Shown here one piece after another: positions 1-22,751 of a stretch of DNA of 64,000 bases. The DNA is from a virus, in the IMG/VR virus record IMGVR_UViG_3300036820_000013, positions 1-64,000 of that record. One strand, written 5' to 3'. Below the pieces are notes generated by a model. It was not told the origin of the DNA, did no database searches, and saw only the letters and a program-made list of their open reading frames with translations. Each line of letters opens with the position of its first letter. The first letter of the stretch is position 1. The position numbers and the translations under genes are program-made.

Positions 1-8
1 AATCAGTA

Positions 9-127
9 GTACAGTAACAAGTAGAATTACTGTACGAAATTATACGGACACAGAAGTGGCAGTGAACCTTCAAGGTTGTACACCGAAAGGTGTACTTCCT
101 TGTGGAGTCAGTCCACAATCAGGTTCG
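9..127 (+). other. Structured AT-rich leader (hairpin plus 3-way junction)
   Basis: GTACAGTAA/TTACTGTAC; GAACCT/AGGTTC enclosing GTACACC-GAAA-GGTGTAC and TGTGGA/TCCACA. Confidence 0.55.
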
Positions 128-144
128 AAGAGAAGGATGACACC

Positions 145-402
145 ATGAAGTCACAGTACAGTGCCGCAGCGATCATCAAGACGTTCGCGGACATCGAAGA
201 GGATGACATGCACTTCCTGAACAATGACGGAACGGTAGACAGGAAGGCCATGGCAGATATGGGCGTCTACCTAGTACGCCTGTCGATGGTCACGGAAGAG
301 GCAGTGCAGCAGGTGCTCGACATGATCGACGCGCCGAGCCTCGAGAAGGCGAACGACCAGGCGTTCGGCCTGATGAACGCCCTGATCAACAGGCAGTACT
401 AG
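145..402 (+). CDS. Hypothetical early protein
   Basis: ORF with GAAGGA SD before ATG 145. Confidence 0.75.
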   Translation: MKSQYSAAAIIKTFADIEEDDMHFLNNDGTVDRKAMADMGVYLVRLSMVTEEAVQQVLDMIDAPSLEKANDQAFGLMNALINRQY

Positions 403-442
403 AAGGGAATGACAATGTTCGCAGTGTAGCCGCTGACGTTCA

Positions 443-479
443 CGATGGTTGATCGATCGCCCAGTTCGGTCAACTGTCG
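443..479 (+). repeat. YGYCCAG-loop hairpin 1
   Basis: 14-bp stem with G-U pairs, loop TCGCCCAGT. Confidence 0.8.
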
Positions 480-517
480 CGGATGCCAAGATGGCATGCG
501 GGAAAGGAAAGTCAGTG

Positions 518-805
518 ATGGAAGAGATTGTACGACATAGCCAGAAGGAATCGCCTGAGTGCAGTTGGTGCGGTGATTTCGAACCGCTCGTAGACAGTGA
601 CACGCAGAAGTTGTTCCCGGTGATTGTGCTTCCGGGGACGGACGGCAAGTTCGGGCAACTGGAGTACTTCCACGAGCCGTGTCATAACACGCTCATGAGG
701 TGTAAGAGAGTCACGGATGCTATCAAAGCTACAGGGTGGACACAGGCTGAGTTCCTAACTCATGTAGATGAGCTAGCCGATGAGATCGAGGAGAACAGCC
801 AATGA
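518..805 (+). CDS. Hypothetical protein (CxxC...HxxC)
   Basis: ORF with GGAAAGGA SD. Confidence 0.65.
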   Translation: MEEIVRHSQKESPECSWCGDFEPLVDSDTQKLFPVIVLPGTDGKFGQLEYFHEPCHNTLMRCKRVTDAIKATGWTQAEFLTHVDELADEIEENSQ

Positions 806-842
806 CCCTCATGGCGAACGCCGACAGGAGGTCTTAGCAGAG

Positions 843-1058
843 ATGGACTCAACGCGGACGATCCTCAACGACGGCAAGGCCGTAACGTTCGTGGACGTAG
901 ACGAGAGCATGATCACTGCGATCGTGTCGATCAACGACTCTGGCGTTCAGTCTCTAGAGTACCAACTCAAGTGCCGTCAGTGCGGTGCAGGCAATTGGGT
1001 AGCGGTCGGTACAGACTCTGGCGAGTACCGCTGCATGAAGTGCATGGAGTGGTTGTGA
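843..1058 (+). CDS. Small Zn-ribbon protein
   Basis: AGGAGG SD; CRQC and CMKC. Confidence 0.65.
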   Translation: MDSTRTILNDGKAVTFVDVDESMITAIVSINDSGVQSLEYQLKCRQCGAGNWVAVGTDSGEYRCMKCMEWL

Positions 1059-1243
1059 TGAACACGCAGTGGGCGGAATACGTCCTGAAGCTCGATCATC
1101 GCGTCACGCGCATAGCGCACTGTCATGCGTGCGGATGGATCGACGGAGACCCGTATGCATTCATCGATCCGAACGGTCATCCGATGCGGATCTGCAAGAT
1201 CACCGAGTACGGGTTGCGTCAGGCAGCCGCGGAGTTCAACTAG
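1058..1243 (+). CDS. Hypothetical protein
   Basis: TGATG coupling to the upstream gene. Confidence 0.6.
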   Translation: MNTQWAEYVLKLDHRVTRIAHCHACGWIDGDPYAFIDPNGHPMRICKITEYGLRQAAAEFN

Positions 1244-1255
1244 TCTGCAGGGCCA

Positions 1256-1292
1256 CGATGGCTGATCGCACGCCCAGTTCGATCAACCGTCG
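1256..1292 (+). repeat. YGYCCAG-loop hairpin 2
   Basis: Near-copy of hairpin 1, loop CACGCCCAGTT. Confidence 0.8.
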
Positions 1293-1309
1293 CGGTCGCA
1301 CAGGTGCCT

Positions 1310-1360
1310 AAAGATCTGAAGGGAGGGGCTGGATTTCACAAGCGGCCCTGTTATATAATA
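1310..1360 (+). promoter_or_regulatory. Promoter P1
   Basis: AGATCT 1312, CTGGA 1329, TATAAT 1354. Confidence 0.85.
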
Positions 1361-1403
1361 AAAATAAATGCGACAAAAAGATCCCAAAAGGAAGGAACCG
1401 GTC

Positions 1404-1778
1404 ATGACCATCAAGTTGCAGGTCGAAGTTCCGGATGCAGCATTCGACTGCATCGACGGAACCGACAACTACGAACTGGTAATCGGGCACGTTGGGTTCG
1501 AGCCGGTCGATGTTCAGCTCCTCGGCGAGCCGGTCAAGCGGGAGTTCACCTACGAGGACCGCAAGCGAGTCAAGGACGTGCTTGACTGCATCCTCGACGA
1601 GATGGGTGACAGTTACACCCTGCAGGCAATGTTCAAGCCATACGCCGAGATCGTCCAGCAGGCGTTGACGGACCAGCGGATCACCGAGTCGCTGGCCGAT
1701 AGCGGATACGTGGAAGTACGCGATGAGAGCGAAGACGCTCAAGCGAAGCTGAACGCGCTGCGGGACTACAACGCCTGA
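1404..1778 (+). CDS. Hypothetical protein
   Basis: GGAAGGA SD, downstream of P1. Confidence 0.75.
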   Translation: MTIKLQVEVPDAAFDCIDGTDNYELVIGHVGFEPVDVQLLGEPVKREFTYEDRKRVKDVLDCILDEMGDSYTLQAMFKPYAEIVQQALTDQRITESLADSGYVEVRDESEDAQAKLNALRDYNA

Positions 1779-1872
1779 CCGATCACGGTTGCAGTCAATC
1801 GGAGGTTGACTGCTTCCGCGGACGATCAGTCCGTACGCCAGTAAGGTCTGGCAAGAGCGCCTAGGAGGCACC

Positions 1873-2181
1873 ATGAAAGACACTGCAGCAGAACTCAAGC
1901 CGGGCAAAGGCGCTCGCGTGCCGTTGACCGAGGGCGTCCTTGAGATGCTCGATAGGGCGGTCAAGGACATCCGCGATGTATGGGAGGCCGCCAGCACGCC
2001 TGAAGAGTTCTTCGAGAACCTGGCGGACGAGTGGGGCACGGGCGCGTCGAACGAGAAGTTCGGCAAGCGCACCTGGGCCGCCTTCGATGTCCGCGGCGAG
2101 GAATTTCGCGTCGCGGTCATACTGACCACCAAGAACGGCCAGCCCGCGCTCGGGCTCGACATTCGGACTTGGTGGTCATAG
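1873..2181 (+). CDS. Hypothetical protein, possible PC4-like ssDNA-binding tail
   Basis: AGGAGG SD; C-terminal LDIRTWW resembles PC4-fold DIR-W. Confidence 0.6.
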   Translation: MKDTAAELKPGKGARVPLTEGVLEMLDRAVKDIRDVWEAASTPEEFFENLADEWGTGASNEKFGKRTWAAFDVRGEEFRVAVILTTKNGQPALGLDIRTWWS

Positions 2182-2242
2182 CACCTCCAGTGCGAATCGT
2201 ACAGGTGAGCGATCACCTGTGCGGTTCGGAAAGGAGCGTCCA

Positions 2243-2497
2243 ATGAACGACAGCGAACGCAAGCACATCATCAAGATGTGCTGGCTGACAATCGTTTCGA
2301 CCGAGCCACGTTGCACGATCGACGATGGTAAGCACAATCCGAGCTGGCTGCACGAAGGCGACCAGTACTGGTACTACGACTTCCAGGACAGTGCACTGAT
2401 CTTGGAGGGCCTGGTGGTTCCGCTCACGACGAGATGGATCCTCTGTCCCAAGCACACCTATCTGGCGCAGGAAACAGCGGCCACAGAAGACCGCTAA
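2243..2497 (+). CDS. Hypothetical protein
   Basis: AAGGAG SD. Confidence 0.7.
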   Translation: MNDSERKHIIKMCWLTIVSTEPRCTIDDGKHNPSWLHEGDQYWYYDFQDSALILEGLVVPLTTRWILCPKHTYLAQETAATEDR

Positions 2498-2550
2498 AAG
2501 ATCTTGGTTCGCGGGCTGGTTTTTCCCAGCGGACCTGGATTATAATTAAG
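2496..2550 (+). promoter_or_regulatory. Promoter P2, followed by an A13 tract
   Basis: AGATCT 2499, CTGGT 2516, TATAAT 2541. Confidence 0.85.
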
Positions 2551-2599
2551 TATAACAAAAAAAAAAAAACCACCAAGTCCACAAAGGAAAGGCAAGACA

Positions 2600-3130
2600 A
2601 TGACCGCACGTACCCGGACCAGAAGGTCGACCAATCAGAGTCAGGAGACCGAAATGAACGAGCAGCAGACCGAGCTCGAGACCGTCCTCACCGAGGCGAT
2701 TGAGCAGCAGACCGAGCCGACCGAGGCCGAGCCGGCCAAGGCCGAGCCCAACTTCGTCATGACGCCGTACCAGGCAACCAAGCGGGTCAACGAGGCCCTG
2801 CAGGAGGCCGGGATCGACAAGACCGTTAGGTCGCCGATGATCTACATCTACGCCGGCAAGGGGGCCTTCGAGACGCACGAGACCGTCAAGGTGACCAAGA
2901 AGGGCACCGAGCAGGTCGTCAAGGAGATCGATGAGGAGTCGTTCCTCGCGTGGATGGCGAATTACGTCAAGGGTGCGGCCGAGCGGGCAACCGCCAAGGT
3001 CGAGCAGGTCGATGTCGCCGAGGGCGAAGAGGCCAGCGGCGTTACGACCGACGAGACCGCCAGCGACGAGTTCGTCGGGGTCGACGTCGAGGCACGTCAG
3101 GCCGAGATCGAGGCCTCCGAGGCTGAGTAA
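2600..3130 (+). CDS. Acidic-tailed protein, paralog of 12670..13191
   Basis: TP..L..IY..W core, acidic ends, ends in EAE. Confidence 0.8.
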   Translation: MTARTRTRRSTNQSQETEMNEQQTELETVLTEAIEQQTEPTEAEPAKAEPNFVMTPYQATKRVNEALQEAGIDKTVRSPMIYIYAGKGAFETHETVKVTKKGTEQVVKEIDEESFLAWMANYVKGAAERATAKVEQVDVAEGEEASGVTTDETASDEFVGVDVEARQAEIEASEAE

Positions 3131-3141
3131 GTGACGACGGT

Positions 3142-3172
3142 CTGACAGCGAGCCGTCCAGCCTCGCTGTCAG
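3142..3172 (+). repeat. YGYCCAG-loop hairpin 3
   Basis: Perfect 11-bp stem, loop CCGTCCAGC. Confidence 0.8.
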
Positions 3173-3202
3173 GCCGCCGACACTTAGTCGGAAGGAGGGA
3201 AC

Positions 3203-4369
3203 ATGACAGCAGACAACCTAGACCTAGCCGAGCCGATGGCGCAGATCGAGACCGCTTTTGCAAGGAAGCCAGATAGGCGCAGCCAGCTAGACAGGGAGCT
3301 AACGAATGCGCGCAAGTACGTATTCGCGAGATACGCTCCAGCGCTAACGTTCAGCGAGCAAGTAACGCTGACGCTAGCAGCGGCAGGCACGCACGTGGTA
3401 GACACCGAAGACAAGAACTGCTTCGGTATCTATCCGCGCGTAGGCATCCTGAGCGACGAGCCGGGAAGCGGCAAGTCAACGATCCTGACACTGCTGTGCC
3501 ACTTGTCATACCGAGGCGAGAAGCTCTACACCAGGAGCACGACAGCCCCAGGCATGCTAAGGGCGCTGCAGGAGGATCGCAGGGTACTATGCCTGGACCA
3601 ACTCGAATACATCCTGAGCCATTCAGGACGCAGCTTCCTAGACCGGATCGACATCATCGAATCGGGCTACGAGCGGCAAGGCTGTTCGAGGAACGCTTCA
3701 GGCAGGCACGAGACATTCGCGCCTGTGTTCTTCGCTTGCCTCCAAGCAATGTTTAGGGGCAATCCGAACCTGGAAGCGATGCGCTCACGCACCATTCAGA
3801 TTCACACCGATCCCCTGCCAGATGGGATGCTTGCAGAAGAAGACCTGTACAGCGACCTGTCGGACGCACGAGCGATCAAGATGTTCGGAGAGCGATTGCA
3901 TATCGCGATCACGAACGCGCGAGAGGCGATCCTCACTAGCGAGCTCAGGCCGGTTGCAGGTCTGAAGCTGCGCATGAGCGAGAAGTGGGGACCACTGCGG
4001 CAAGTGGCGGCAGCGGCTGGAGGGCAATGGCCCGAATGGGTCGATGCCGCAGCCCGTGAGGTCTCGCTAGGGACGGAGACAGAGACGACCGCAGGAGGCC
4101 TCGGACTGTTCGAGGAGGACGCGATCGCATCCATCCGAGAGTTCCTAGAAGAGTCGGCCACCGACAACCTGGGGAGGCCGGAGCTCCTACGCCGCATAGG
4201 CGAGCGGACGCCCGCTTGGTATACGCCGAGGCAGGGAGCCGATTACCTAAACGGCATCATGGAGAACTACGGCATGCCGGAAGCGACTTCGGTGCATATC
4301 GCGAGCCTCGATCAAGCACGCCCAGGATGGAAGCACTCAGACCTCGAAGCAGTGTTCAGTGAGAACTAG
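3203..4369 (+). CDS. P-loop NTPase, DUF3631-type replication/helicase-like protein
   Basis: Walker A PGSGKS, Walker B LCLDQ, SGYER, RSRTI arginine finger. Confidence 0.7.
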   Translation: MTADNLDLAEPMAQIETAFARKPDRRSQLDRELTNARKYVFARYAPALTFSEQVTLTLAAAGTHVVDTEDKNCFGIYPRVGILSDEPGSGKSTILTLLCHLSYRGEKLYTRSTTAPGMLRALQEDRRVLCLDQLEYILSHSGRSFLDRIDIIESGYERQGCSRNASGRHETFAPVFFACLQAMFRGNPNLEAMRSRTIQIHTDPLPDGMLAEEDLYSDLSDARAIKMFGERLHIAITNAREAILTSELRPVAGLKLRMSEKWGPLRQVAAAAGGQWPEWVDAAAREVSLGTETETTAGGLGLFEEDAIASIREFLEESATDNLGRPELLRRIGERTPAWYTPRQGADYLNGIMENYGMPEATSVHIASLDQARPGWKHSDLEAVFSEN

Positions 4370-4492
4370 ATTCTCGCGGGACACTCTCGCTCTCGCCGGA
4401 TCGCTTTCCAAAACAAATCAAGCAGGGAGGCGCGAGGTGAGTACGTACCTATTCTACAGCCCCTTCTCTAGAGCGTACAAGATCGAAAGGAG

Positions 4493-4816
4493 GTGAGAAA
4501 AGTGGGACTGCTACGCATGATGATCTACAATAGCGCACGACAGCGCCGCGCTAACTGGTCAGGAAGGCCGATCGCAGCTCAGGAGCGTGATCGGAAGCGG
4601 AAAGCAGCTGAGCGGACGCTGTCAGCTGCAGACAGTCGTCGACTGCACAACGTCATGCGTGCAGAGGGACGGATCAGGAAGCCGGACTACTACTACGGCA
4701 TGAACGAGTACGACGGTTGGCGGTGCCCGCACCAGCATCGGCACAAGATGCGAGCGCGGGTCTGCATCAGTCGCGAACGGCGCCTACGCAGGCGCGAGGC
4801 CAGAGTGAGTGCATGA
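4493..4816 (+). CDS. Arg-rich hypothetical protein
   Basis: ORF with CPHQH motif; start uncertain. Confidence 0.6.
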   Translation: MRKVGLLRMMIYNSARQRRANWSGRPIAAQERDRKRKAAERTLSAADSRRLHNVMRAEGRIRKPDYYYGMNEYDGWRCPHQHRHKMRARVCISRERRLRRREARVSA

Positions 4817-4821
4817 CAGTC

Positions 4822-4848
4822 GGGTAGCGGACGCCCAGCCCGCTACCC
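4822..4848 (+). repeat. YGYCCAG-loop hairpin 4
   Basis: GGGTAGCGG/CCGCTACCC, loop ACGCCCAGC. Confidence 0.8.
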
Positions 4849-4880
4849 AGGCTGCCGACACTCAGTCGGAAGGAGGAGTA

Positions 4881-5204
4881 ATGAACGGCAAATACTACTC
4901 ACAGGTCCTACGAGGACAGTTGTCGGAAGACGACAACATGGCAGTTGTGCTGACAGTCAAGGACTGGCAGGCGATCGCCGAGAACCTGCACGAGGACGCC
5001 GATGCAGAGGGCTACGGCCCCGCGCAGAGCTACTTCATCGAGCGCGGGGAAGTCACCAGTATGGCCGACGTGCCCATTCTGGACTACCAGAACGCGTATG
5101 ACAAGGACGCTCAGGACTGCGCCGCGCATAGCTGTGCAGCCGCGACCGATCGCTGCGCCGACGTGATCGATGAGACCTTGAAGCAGAATGGCTGGTCAGG
5201 CTAG
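4881..5204 (+). CDS. Acidic hypothetical protein
   Basis: AGGAGG SD. Confidence 0.75.
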   Translation: MNGKYYSQVLRGQLSEDDNMAVVLTVKDWQAIAENLHEDADAEGYGPAQSYFIERGEVTSMADVPILDYQNAYDKDAQDCAAHSCAAATDRCADVIDETLKQNGWSG

Positions 5205-5205
5205 C

Positions 5206-5607
5206 ATGGCCCGCGTAATCGTGCTCTCGTTCGAAGATAACGAGTCCGCAGAGATGTTCGCGAAGGCGTTGCTTCGGGAAGGGCCTACGGCCGGTAGGCC
5301 GTTCGTGCCGCCTAGTGCGAAGATCGAAGCAATGATCGCGCGCCCAACGGCCGGATGCAGGGGACCGCACAGGATCCCAGGCAAGATCAAGTCCGAGCAT
5401 GGCTTCAGTCGAACCAAGCGGTTTGGTTGGTTCGTCTGCGGCCAGTGTAAAAAGCCAGCGCAAGCGGTCGTAGACCGTTTCATCGAGAACATGTTGGGCG
5501 GGTCGAACGACCTGCTGCCAGAAGTACTTGGCAGCGAGCCTAAGCAGCCTCGATGGCTAGCAGGCAAGGCACTCGTCGAAGTGCAGACACAACTAGGAAG
5601 AAGGTAG
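5206..5607 (+). CDS. Hypothetical protein (CGQC)
   Basis: ORF abutting the upstream gene. Confidence 0.7.
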   Translation: MARVIVLSFEDNESAEMFAKALLREGPTAGRPFVPPSAKIEAMIARPTAGCRGPHRIPGKIKSEHGFSRTKRFGWFVCGQCKKPAQAVVDRFIENMLGGSNDLLPEVLGSEPKQPRWLAGKALVEVQTQLGRR

Positions 5608-5612
5608 CCAAT

Positions 5613-6065
5613 ATGGATGCTGACGAGAAGCGTGAGCTCCTGAGCTTCGCGGAATATGAAGTTCACGACTTCATCGCGGAGCACAACGATCGCGTCGACA
5701 AGTGGGACTCCGACGCTGAGTATCGCGAGCAGGCGCGGGCCATAGGCCTCAAGCGCGGCGAGAAGTGGGATCCCAAGGCGGAGGTGTACCCCCAGAAGCC
5801 GAGCTACACGTTCCAAGAGTTCGCAGGGCCAGTCTTCGAGCTCGGCGGCTACGGTGACATGACGCTCATCGATCCATACTCGCAGCGACGTCTCTGGGTC
5901 AGCCAGTCAACCATCGGCGACCTCAGCGCGTACGACGCCATGATCCTAGTCCTGAAGATCGCGCAGGCGATCGACTTTCTAGACGACCGAGAGGAGGAAG
6001 ACCATGGCGCGGCAGACACAAGTTCAACGTCCGCAGCCGAAGCCCCAGCCGACAACTCCGACTGA
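5613..6065 (+). CDS. Hypothetical protein
   Basis: ORF with SD. Confidence 0.7.
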   Translation: MDADEKRELLSFAEYEVHDFIAEHNDRVDKWDSDAEYREQARAIGLKRGEKWDPKAEVYPQKPSYTFQEFAGPVFELGGYGDMTLIDPYSQRRLWVSQSTIGDLSAYDAMILVLKIAQAIDFLDDREEEDHGAADTSSTSAAEAPADNSD

Positions 6066-6124
6066 CGCCCCGACTACCAACAAGCGCATAGCAAGGCTCT
6101 GGTTCGGCCAGTAGCGCCGGCAGA

Positions 6125-6159
6125 CAATGCGTGATCGATGCCCAGTCGATCGCGCGTTG
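6125..6159 (+). repeat. YGYCCAG-loop hairpin 5
   Basis: 14-bp stem with G-U pairs, loop TGCCCAG. Confidence 0.8.
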
Positions 6160-6197
6160 CGTGCTTACGTTAGCACGGCCCAGAAAGGAATAAGGCA

Positions 6198-6716
6198 ATG
6201 ACACAGACGCCAATCCAGCAGTACCCAAGCGTCACGCCTCCGCCGGCCGGCAAGAAGCGCCGTTGGCCGAAGTTTGTCGCGATCGGTGCTACCGCTCTCG
6301 TCGCAGGCGCGATCGGAGCGTCGATCGGTACCGCAAGCAACAAAACGCCGACGGTCAGCCCAAAGGCGACAGTTAGTGCTCCGGCCAAGGTAGCGCCCGC
6401 CAAGCCTGCGGCGTTCAAGCCAGTTACCTTGCTGGAGGACACCGGCACCGGGACCGAAGTCACTCCATCATTCGTCAGCCAGAGCGGCGACTACAAGGTG
6501 GTCTGGATCTTCTCGGACAACAGCGACCAGTACGGCAACGCTTCCAACTTCATCATGACTGAGGACGGTGGCAGCGACCTCAACGCTATGACGCTGCCTA
6601 ACGACATCCAGTCCGCTGGAACCGGTAGCACCGAGATCACTGACGATCCCGGCACGCACACGTTCGACGTGCAGGCTCTGGGCACCTGGCAGGTAGTGGT
6701 AGTGTCAGCACCGTAG
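6198..6716 (+). CDS. Membrane-anchored exported protein
   Basis: KKRR, then TM helix, P/A linker and beta-rich domain. Confidence 0.75.
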   Translation: MTQTPIQQYPSVTPPPAGKKRRWPKFVAIGATALVAGAIGASIGTASNKTPTVSPKATVSAPAKVAPAKPAAFKPVTLLEDTGTGTEVTPSFVSQSGDYKVVWIFSDNSDQYGNASNFIMTEDGGSDLNAMTLPNDIQSAGTGSTEITDDPGTHTFDVQALGTWQVVVVSAP

Positions 6717-6780
6717 CGCCGGTAGGCCTTAGGCGATCAGCACTGATCGCCTTTGGCGTGCTTACGCACGAAGGAATCTA

Positions 6781-6835
6781 AAAGATCTGGGAGGTGACTC
6801 TTGGCTTTCCCACTCGCCCTGATATATAATTAATT
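6781..6835 (+). promoter_or_regulatory. Promoter P3
   Basis: AGATCT 6783, CTTGGC 6800, TATAAT 6825. Confidence 0.85.
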
Positions 6836-6944
6836 AATGGAGGAGAGCAGCTATGGACGTTGAAACCCAGGCCGGAGATTGGTCCCCCCACCGCTCCGGC
6901 CTGGTTTTGAGCGCCCAAGCTCAAGCAAAGAAACGGAGCACACA

Positions 6945-7214
6945 ATGACTGCAACAGACAGGCCCAGCACCCATCTCGGCAACGGAATGGGTAGGACCAT
7001 GCGAGCGGCGGCATGGTCGTTCGACTTCGCCTTGCCCCTGATGGCGATCAAGCTGTACCAGCTCATTCCGAGCAGCACCCGCGGGCGGCTGTTCGGCGGA
7101 CCGAGCGCGTCGGTCGACGCCGCGCGGCAGATCAAGCTGCAGGGCGGAGGGGCTTGGCAGCTCATCCGCAGCATCGCGATCAGCAACCACCCCGACCGGC
7201 CGAGCATGCCATGA
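6945..7214 (+). CDS. Hypothetical protein, distant paralog of 22329 and 23198
   Basis: LPLxxIxLY..IP...R...GG.W pattern. Confidence 0.6.
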   Translation: MTATDRPSTHLGNGMGRTMRAAAWSFDFALPLMAIKLYQLIPSSTRGRLFGGPSASVDAARQIKLQGGGAWQLIRSIAISNHPDRPSMP

Positions 7215-13191: not shown

Positions 13192-13194
13192 GTC

Positions 13195-13625
13195 CTCCGA
13201 TGGTACGTCCGGTGAGGCAAGCTCACCTCCGAGCGTCCTTGAGCAAGACGCGAAGCTGGTCGGCTCCGTTGGGTACGACGGAGCCGGCCGGGCCGGCATC
13301 AGTTTGTTCAGGGGCGGGTGAGGATCGGACTAGCTCCGGTCTGGCGCCGAATAGGCATATAGGGCGGGTTCGAGGCCCGCGCCGCCCACGAAGCTGTATG
13401 TGGGTGCAGCCACAGACAGCCTGCGCTAGCCCGGTAGCGTGTATCCGCCTAAGCGGACAAGGGGCTCAGCCTCCCGGGACCTCAAACTCGGGCGCCCAGC
13501 AGCGTAAGGCGGAGCAGCTGGGCGCTCGTTCAAACCTGGGGCACCCGTTGTGGGCGGTTGATCGCGCCGCTACTACGGTTGCAGGTCCTGTCCCACTGCT
13601 GGGCGCAGCGGGTGTCCCAGGCCGA
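13195..13625 (+). ncRNA. Highly structured non-coding region (candidate ncRNA or ncRNAs)
   Basis: About 10 consecutive stems, including a 17-bp stem 13535-13551/13605-13621 with G-U pairs; no convincing CDS. Confidence 0.6.
13312..13388 (+). ncRNA. tRNA-like element lacking a D-arm
   Basis: GGGCGG/CCGCCC acceptor; T-arm GCGGG-TTCGAGG-CCCGC; central stem with loop ACTAGCT; variable-arm hairpin. Confidence 0.5.
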
Positions 13626-13654
13626 ATTGGGCCATTACTAATGGAGGGTTGACC

Positions 13655-22662: not shown

Positions 22663-22717
22663 AGAAATCCAAGGTCAAAACGCTTGCGTTCCTGAGCGCC
22701 TCCGCTATATAATTAAG
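22663..22717 (+). promoter_or_regulatory. Promoter P6
   Basis: AAATCC 22665, CTTGCG 22683, TATAAT 22708. Confidence 0.8.
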
Positions 22718-22751
22718 TATACAAAAGCAAGAACAAAGGCGACACAAAACG

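Follow-up and report, generated by a model that had tools for sequence, protein, structure and literature searches.

The left end of a soil actinophage genome raises the question of what a set of hairpins placed between its early genes might do, and whether hairpins that appear to share only a loop can have a common identity. The window analysed here is the first 64 kb of the 79,080-nt linear IMG/VR record IMGVR_UViG_3300036820_000013 (estimated completeness 85%), with genes on the + strand up to ~34 kb and on the - strand thereafter. An earlier note on this DNA had described five + strand hairpins, here called H1 to H5, with unrelated stems and a shared loop, YGYCCAG. All five are present in the sequence with the loops quoted; they lie between genes, in the sense orientation, in the first 6.2 kb, a region that we infer to be early from its gene content and promoter-like sites. 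Our main finding is that H1 to H5 are copies of one ~41-nt cis-acting RNA element, a real and new repeat RNA element of a soil actinophage lineage that has no Rfam entry. Repeated intercistronic hairpins are already known from phages, as T7 RNase III sites, as the extended start-associated sequences (ESAS) of Cluster K mycobacteriophages and as the PeSL cassettes of T4-type phages, and to that extent early-region hairpins are familiar; the architecture of a conserved tip and a conserved base around a co-varying middle is new.

A chance origin of the association between hairpin and loop is rejected by folding, shuffling and loop counts. With the motif forced to be unpaired, H1 to H5 fold at -21.7 to -30.3 kcal/mol. 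The + strand of the 79 kb has 43 YGYCCAG sites, of which the next-best reaches only -12.1 kcal/mol, and the single lowest value among 60 dinucleotide shuffles of the genome was -21.8 kcal/mol. The real + strand holds 67 hairpin sites at or below -20 kcal/mol, which together offer 199 loop positions, and at the genome frequency of the motif (43 per 79 kb) ~0.11 occurrences would be expected in these loops against the five observed. The enrichment of the loop is thus real, and it remains significant after allowing for the post-hoc choice of the motif and for counting H1 and H2 as one.

The description of the stems as unrelated did not hold up, because the five hairpins are diverged copies of one element with a common base and stem top. 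H1 (441-481) carries a 14-bp helix, perfect between 443 and 479, over an A/C mismatch, with the loop U-CGCCCAG-U (-22.2 kcal/mol; 51.8 bits under our covariance model R1 and 57.9 bits under a second model). Its paralogue H2 (1254-1294), 81% identical over 53 nt, has 6+6 bp flanking a single C/A mismatch and the loop CA-CGCCCAG-UU (-21.7 kcal/mol; 51.8 bits). In H3 (3136-3178), a perfect 15-bp helix (3138-3176) supports the loop C-CGUCCAG-C (-30.3 kcal/mol; 38.4 bits), and in H4 (4815-4856) a perfect stem of 9 bp (4822-4848) extends to 14 pairs with one bulged A beneath the loop A-CGCCCAG-C (-24.3 kcal/mol; 51.2 bits). H5 (6123-6161) combines a perfect 14-bp helix (6125-6159) with the 7-nt loop UGCCCAG, alternatively a pentaloop GCCCA closed by U.G (-27.3 kcal/mol; 34.9 bits). 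When the five copies are registered on the motif, the base reads 5'-S-A-C-R-R-U paired with G-Y-Y-G-C-S-3', that is, an A/C mismatch, a C-G pair, two co-varying R-Y pairs and an invariant U.G wobble. Above it stand about five variable, co-varying pairs, then an invariant stem top, A-N-C-G / C-G-N-U, and the loop N(0-2)-YGYCCAG-N(0-2), which RNAfold closes by Y-G around the pentaloop RYCCA, usually over a 1x1 mismatch. The distance from basal mismatch to loop is 14 +/- 1 bp in every copy, and H1, H2 and H5 even have the stem top TGATCGA in common. Since the hairpins are diverged copies in this way, independent convergence on the loop cannot be claimed.

A covariance model built from these copies and scanned across the genome returned exactly five members in 79 kb, all intergenic and co-oriented with the genes, at 35-52 bits under R1, and the next match scored 15 bits with filters off. 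Likewise, a search with the base module alone on both strands of the phage genome and of a relative, G001, found just these hairpins. G001 (79.6 kb, syntenic, PolA 50% identical) is the only IMG/VR relative that includes the early region, and the covariance model did not find the element in it or in the fragments G002 and G003; IMG/VR gave no match to any of three motif patterns, one of them a strict IUPAC rendering of the element. The strict pattern did match ten places in JGI metagenome contigs, two of which fold and score 49-51 bits, and the two contigs accepted on this basis, L099 (3.4 kb) and L093 (1.3 kb), are soil-metagenome fragments of related phages. They add seven copies, six on one strand of L099 and one on L093, so that the compact 41-nt motif is now represented by 12 copies in three soil phages and could be moved into a Streptomyces reporter. 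The L099 loops are CGCCCAG and CACCCAG (two each), CGCACGG and AUCACGC (one each), and that of L093 is CGCCCAG; CRCCCAG is therefore retained in five of the seven copies, and the loop in two of the three relatives (L099 and L093, not G001). L099 encodes homologues of genes 145-402 and 2600-3130 at 44% identity, which makes it a third lineage of this phage group by sequence, and one of its elements occupies the position equivalent to H3, past the homologue of gene 2600-3130. At the same junction G001 has an unrelated 14-bp hairpin with a UUCG cap, also without a U-tract, and this substitution suggests a generic function of the hairpin combined with a lineage-specific recognition tip.

Outside this phage group the element was not found in the genomes searched. 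Among 307 actinomycete genomes (5 + 151 + 151) we obtained only single matches of 21-34 bits in GC-rich DNA, and the 14 alignments displayed, which do not include two class-level matches, consist mostly of mismatched pairs, and we read these matches as noise. A single match of 24-28 bits on a 304-kb metagenome contig (L100, 2875-2915) has a CGCCCAG loop and five mismatched pairs and is probably a chance occurrence in GC-rich bacterial DNA. Rfam 15 gave no match at gathering score in the window, and only chance microRNA-type matches in positions 1-7000 when E-values up to 10 were admitted. An enrichment count of loop 5-mers over all weak hairpins did not make the motif visible, being too diluted, and revealed no alternative shared loop in G001.

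That the folded RNA itself matters is indicated by the way the copies differ. In the model-guided alignment of the five window copies, 96% of cells are paired and both sides have changed in 10 of 15 pairs; none of 500 shuffles reached the observed covariation score, and in slid-alignment controls pairing dropped to 20-49%. Because this alignment is fitted to the structure, these values are somewhat inflated. The two figures rise to 97% and 12 of 15 when all twelve copies are aligned. The U.G wobble is kept in 12 of 12 copies, and the A/C mismatch has become A-U in two of them. The claim that G.T pairs work on the + strand only stands in part: the + strand is favoured overall, with summed fold energies for the 12 elements of -280.6 kcal/mol in sense and -233.3 kcal/mol in antisense, yet not in every copy, the sense fold being better in 8 of 12. 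The covariance models separate the strands clearly, with 57.6 bits in sense versus 16.9 in antisense and, under model R2, 28-58 bits for sense copies versus 16-17 for their reverse complements. Pairing, covariation, the invariant U.G and the loop kept in two relatives hence support the earlier proposal that selection acts on structure plus loop on the sense strand. The comparison shows the element to be a sense-strand RNA under purifying selection with conserved ends of the recognition type, and a conserved tip and base with a co-varying helix between them are the signature of an RNA that is read by a specific partner.

The placement of the copies is equally regular. Measured from the stop codon upstream, H1 to H5 begin at a distance of 38, 10, 5, -2 and 8 nt, and their ends are separated from the following start codon by 36, 109, 24, 24 and 36 nt; H3, for example, begins 5 nt past the stop of gene 2600-3130, and H4 overlaps the TGA stop of gene 4502-4816 by two bases, its own first two. 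On L099 and L093 the element starts at most ~10 nt from a stop codon, often one that it supplies itself as TGAC, and the start codon follows 29-41 nt past its end, so that the gap to the next start is 24-41 nt in 11 of the 12 elements. Downstream, the order is element, small hairpin (commonly AUGCC-AGARA-GGCAU) and strong ribosome-binding site. After H1 the small hairpin (483-497, AUGCCA / UGGCAU) is followed by the ribosome-binding site and the start codon at 518, and hairpins of the AUGCC-AGARA-GGCAU type also stand past several L099 and L093 elements. H3 and H4 are followed by the same module, a hairpin CCGAC-ACUYA-GUCGG that abuts the ribosome-binding site AAGGAGG (3170-3198 before the start codon at 3203, and 4848-4876 before that at 4881); the two modules are identical in 27 of 29 nt (93%), and despite this the stem middles of H3 and H4 differ by compensated changes. 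After H5 comes a hairpin CGUGCU / AGCACG (6160-6177); an unpaired GCCCAG separates it from the ribosome-binding site and from the start codon at 6198. Extra unpaired copies of GCCCAG/CCCAGG lie near ribosome-binding sites at 6178-6183, 3' of this second hairpin, and at 4845-4850, at the foot of H4. A paralogue of the H5 module at 6714-6770, which precedes the promoter-like site P3, has a hairpin (6731-6752) with the loop GCAC and neither the motif nor the ACRRU base; it is a natural loop-less comparison outside the element family.

Transcription must pass several of these hairpins, because between H3, H4 and H5 and the genes at 3203, 4881 and 6198 there is no room for a promoter; three elements lie inside the single P2 unit. 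H2 instead lies at the end of an operon, upstream of the promoter-like site P1, a position shared by the unrelated hairpins at 6731 and 22607. The promoter-like family consists of AAAGATCT followed ~35 nt on by TG-n-TATATAAT, with members in the window at ~1335, 2522, 6806 and 22689 (spans ~1308-1365, 2497-2552, 6778-6836 and 22689-22719), at 4755-4815 of L006 and on L099 and L093, and it is common to all four related phages, G001 included. In G001, AAAGATCT sits within a 21-nt palindrome, which suggests an operator. The hairpins are G+C-rich, as in intrinsic terminators, and fold at the energies given above; a U-tract is missing, with one to three T in the 10 nt past each helix, and a terminator scan reports none of the five. 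Just after P3, a 27-codon open reading frame (6853-6936) overlaps a strong hairpin (~6866-6903) followed by GGTTTTGAG, by its sequence a canonical, attenuator-like arrangement with a U-tract, so the phage evidently does use U-tract hairpins elsewhere.

Taken as a whole, we tentatively favour, with slightly less than even confidence, a reading in which H1 to H5 punctuate polycistronic early transcripts in cis, as 3'-end, processing or stability elements that act through a factor reading the loop. The helix body would mark or protect the 3' end of the upstream mRNA segment. It would do so as a processing or stability site, cut by a double-strand or loop-specific ribonuclease as happens at the RNase III sites of early T7 RNA, or else as a leaky terminator without a U-tract; the segment further downstream would have its 5' end shielded by the small hairpin. 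Loop and base, both conserved, could offer a docking surface for a trans-acting factor of the host or the phage, and the docked factor would set the transcript or translation that passes each junction. That the hairpin body has a generic role at junctions is suggested by its position right after stop codons, by the operon-end position of H2 and by the UUCG-capped substitute in G001. We found no RNase III, double-stranded RNA-binding, ANTAR or T7-type RNA polymerase domain in the phage record (for the polymerase a weak negative, the control of that search having been silent), and we therefore take host RNA polymerase and host nucleases as the default actors.

Two known systems come close to this picture. 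In T7, the early region has the RNase III processing sites R0.3 to R1.3, reportedly described by Dunn and Studier in 1983, and Bs-RNase III sites occur in SP82 early mRNA. Like these, our hairpins are a set of about five related sense-strand structures without U-tracts between early cistrons of a transcript, predicted here to be polycistronic and made by host polymerase; there is an internal mismatch low in the helix, and the upstream message would keep a hairpin that protects its 3' end. The T7 sites differ in that they are longer, have two stems around an asymmetric internal loop and no conserved apical loop, and are demonstrably cleaved, whereas our element has a helix of 14 bp plus 1-4 bp and a conserved tip, and its cleavage is hypothetical. 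The second comparison is with phiC31, for whose early terminators we know of no reported shared loop or base motif. According to Ingham et al. (1995), as cited in PMC3993855, the phiC31 early region contains rho-independent terminators that lack the U-tract, and the resemblance is that hairpins with no poly-U tail stand between early genes of a phage that infects filamentous actinomycetes. Termination by H1 to H5 is hypothetical, and an actinobacterial polymerase has been shown to need a U-tract (PMC3993855). How actinophages punctuate early operons without U-tract terminators is a question that dates from the phiC31 work and is sharpened by this property of the polymerase.

Several observations weigh against the punctuation reading. 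With 14 bp, the A/C mismatch and 1-4 further bp, the helix has 16-19 stacked positions and is shorter than classical RNase III substrates, in which about two turns of double-stranded RNA stack coaxially and an internal loop often marks the cut; this weakens the RNase III branch, and to our knowledge bacterial RNase III has no sequence requirement in the apical loop. No candidate binding protein could be named. One L099 element stands downstream of a promoter-like site, in a 5' leader and with a deviant loop, and fits a role for the downstream gene better than a 3'-end role. We found no RNA sequencing run that carries the phage, the sole matching run being soil metagenome DNA that may be its source. 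The terminator branch, finally, is weakened by the missing U-tract, since mycobacterial RNA polymerase requires one for termination (PMC3993855). If the partner proves to be a phage protein or RNA, the element would define a new class of actinophage regulator and a potentially useful insulator or processing part.

Factor-dependent control of transcription was among the roles first suggested for these hairpins and is, in our estimate, unlikely. Here an early phage protein would bind the nascent pentaloop, so that polymerase reads through stops or the hairpin becomes a stop, and temporal tiers of expression would result. Lambda-type nut sites, composed of boxA and, a few nt on, of a boxB that has a 5-bp stem and a GNRA-like purine pentaloop and is bound by the arginine-rich N, occur once per operon near the promoter, and the likeness is that of an early-transcript hairpin with a pentaloop whose sequence matters. 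The conserved closing pair of the sequence-specific pentaloop and the presence of elements within operons that need read-through are consistent with this model, as is an orphan, very basic 104-aa protein (29 Arg+Lys) encoded just upstream of H4 by gene 4502-4816; moreover, G001, which has no elements, also lacks most of the small early genes. The element nonetheless departs from boxB in the features compared: its stem has 14 bp rather than 5, its loop is not GNRA-like, no boxA-like sequence was found in positions 1-7000 (CGCTCTT, GCTCTTTA and TGCTCTT were searched), and there are five to six sites per few kb versus one per operon. H2, in addition, lies upstream of a promoter-like site. The basic protein contains a C-x2-H...C cluster; it could be assigned to no family and given no confident fold, and neither a relative in Pfam, PHROG, PDB or Atlas nor a homologue in G001 or elsewhere was detected.

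Control of translation seems rather improbable to us as well. On this account the element and the small hairpin would form a start-associated module that sets ribosome loading or binds a translational repressor, by analogy with ESAS and the shorter SAS. ESAS are imperfect inverted repeats with conserved 17-bp arms and a variable spacer of 4-13 nt (PMC3203893), and they resemble our element as actinophage repeats in one orientation among non-structural genes, just upstream of a ribosome-binding site and start codon, whose presence is gene-linked and varies between lineages. They differ in that their arms are conserved and the spacer is variable, whereas here conservation is seen in loop, base and stem top, with co-variation in the middle pairs. 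In Cluster K the 13-mer SAS stands 3-8 bp before the start codon (PMC3203893); searched for as GGGATAGGAGCCC, it is absent from the stretches that separate our elements from the following start codons. The tight spacing to the start, the conserved small hairpin abutting the ribosome-binding site and the L099 copy in a 5' leader would fit such control, and ESAS, too, are confined to a single orientation and to non-structural genes (PMC3203893). However, the element ends at least 24 nt upstream of the start codon, largely beyond the footprint of the ribosome, a promoter-like site separates H2 from its next gene, and G001 uses an unrelated hairpin at the equivalent junction; the function of ESAS is itself unverified (PMC12699233).

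Still less probable are two variants of an RNA-RNA kissing interaction with the intergenic gap at 13192-13648. In the first, which we consider very unlikely, the loops at early junctions would pair with CUGGGCG in a phage RNA from this gap and so time the decay or silencing of early mRNA; in the second, just as doubtful, a change of conformation would let the 457-nt RNA kiss every early-junction hairpin simultaneously, giving a coordinated shut-off or decay of early messages. The idea draws on the fact that the + strand of the 79 kb has six CTGGGCG sites, two of which fall in this gap. The gap folds at -251 kcal/mol (z = -5.8 versus shuffles), and Rfam offers no match for it. Every loop can form a duplex of 7-8 bp, predicted at -11.8 to -17.0 kcal/mol, and G or U would tolerate each of the bases by which the loops vary (C/U here, G/A in L099). 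Against this, an internal CGCCCAG fully sequesters the first anti-loop copy (probability of being unpaired 0.00), and the second is only 40% unpaired and lies outside hairpin loops in the local minimum-energy fold. Motif and complement may exist simply to pair mutually. The syntenic gap of G001 is only ~150 nt long, unrelated and without anything similar, and no relative has both regions for a comparison of co-variation. If true, a kissing switch would be an RNA-only timing switch in a phage. The gap holds two copies of the exact complement GCUGGGCGC together with the internal decoy copy of the loop; it also contains a 16-bp hairpin (13256-13291) followed by a T-rich run, which may end the upstream gene, and the remainder could be a long leader of gene 13656.

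That the elements are selfish, intergenic cassettes able to move, or linkers at which recombination shuffles small early genes, with little regulatory role, is similarly remote in our view. The PeSL cassettes of T4-type phages are proposed linkers of this kind, and our elements do flank small, fast-turnover orphan genes (three of ~17 early genes have G001 homologues); gene order around shared elements differs between the window and L099, and many copies carry their own TGAC as the upstream stop codon. Compensatory stems and an invariant wobble and loop maintained across proteins of 44% identity argue instead for purifying selection on a folded RNA, and recombination would favour identical stems rather than diversified ones.

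Three further candidates were set aside: an N4-style promoter hairpin in single-stranded DNA (no phage RNA polymerase domain was found, a weak negative as noted above, the wobbles suit the non-template strand, and N4 stems are far shorter), a target of TGT/DpdA at the Y-G-Y of the loop (L099 copies have A there), and a bacterial selenocysteine-insertion (SECIS) or read-through signal (only H4 of the five follows UGA, and the frames are inconsistent, 4-113 codons, and never join the next gene). The loop may in addition be complementary to a conserved stretch of 16S rRNA.

With regard to the phage itself, no close cultured relative was found: PolA identity stays below 30% in the cultured-phage collection, which also gave no DNA match to positions 1-7000 and no protein match to gene 3203-4369. 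The genome encodes a PolA fused to a UDG domain, an SNF2 helicase and an SsgA-like protein (61.6 bits), which together point to a filamentous actinomycete as host, and no tRNA or tmRNA genes were found. A profile scan of metagenomes with the DUF3631 protein found nothing; its closest homologues, at 57% and 54% identity, lie on contigs of 33.9 kb and 24.4 kb. Three successive small early proteins encoded at 518-1243 have Cys/His zinc-ribbon-like motifs, with one weak Zn_ribbon match. At the extreme start of the contig (9-35) stands a hairpin GTACAGTAA...TTACTGTAC that is kept in L099 (~3197-3160, minus strand) before a different gene, so the left end of the window is probably not a random break.

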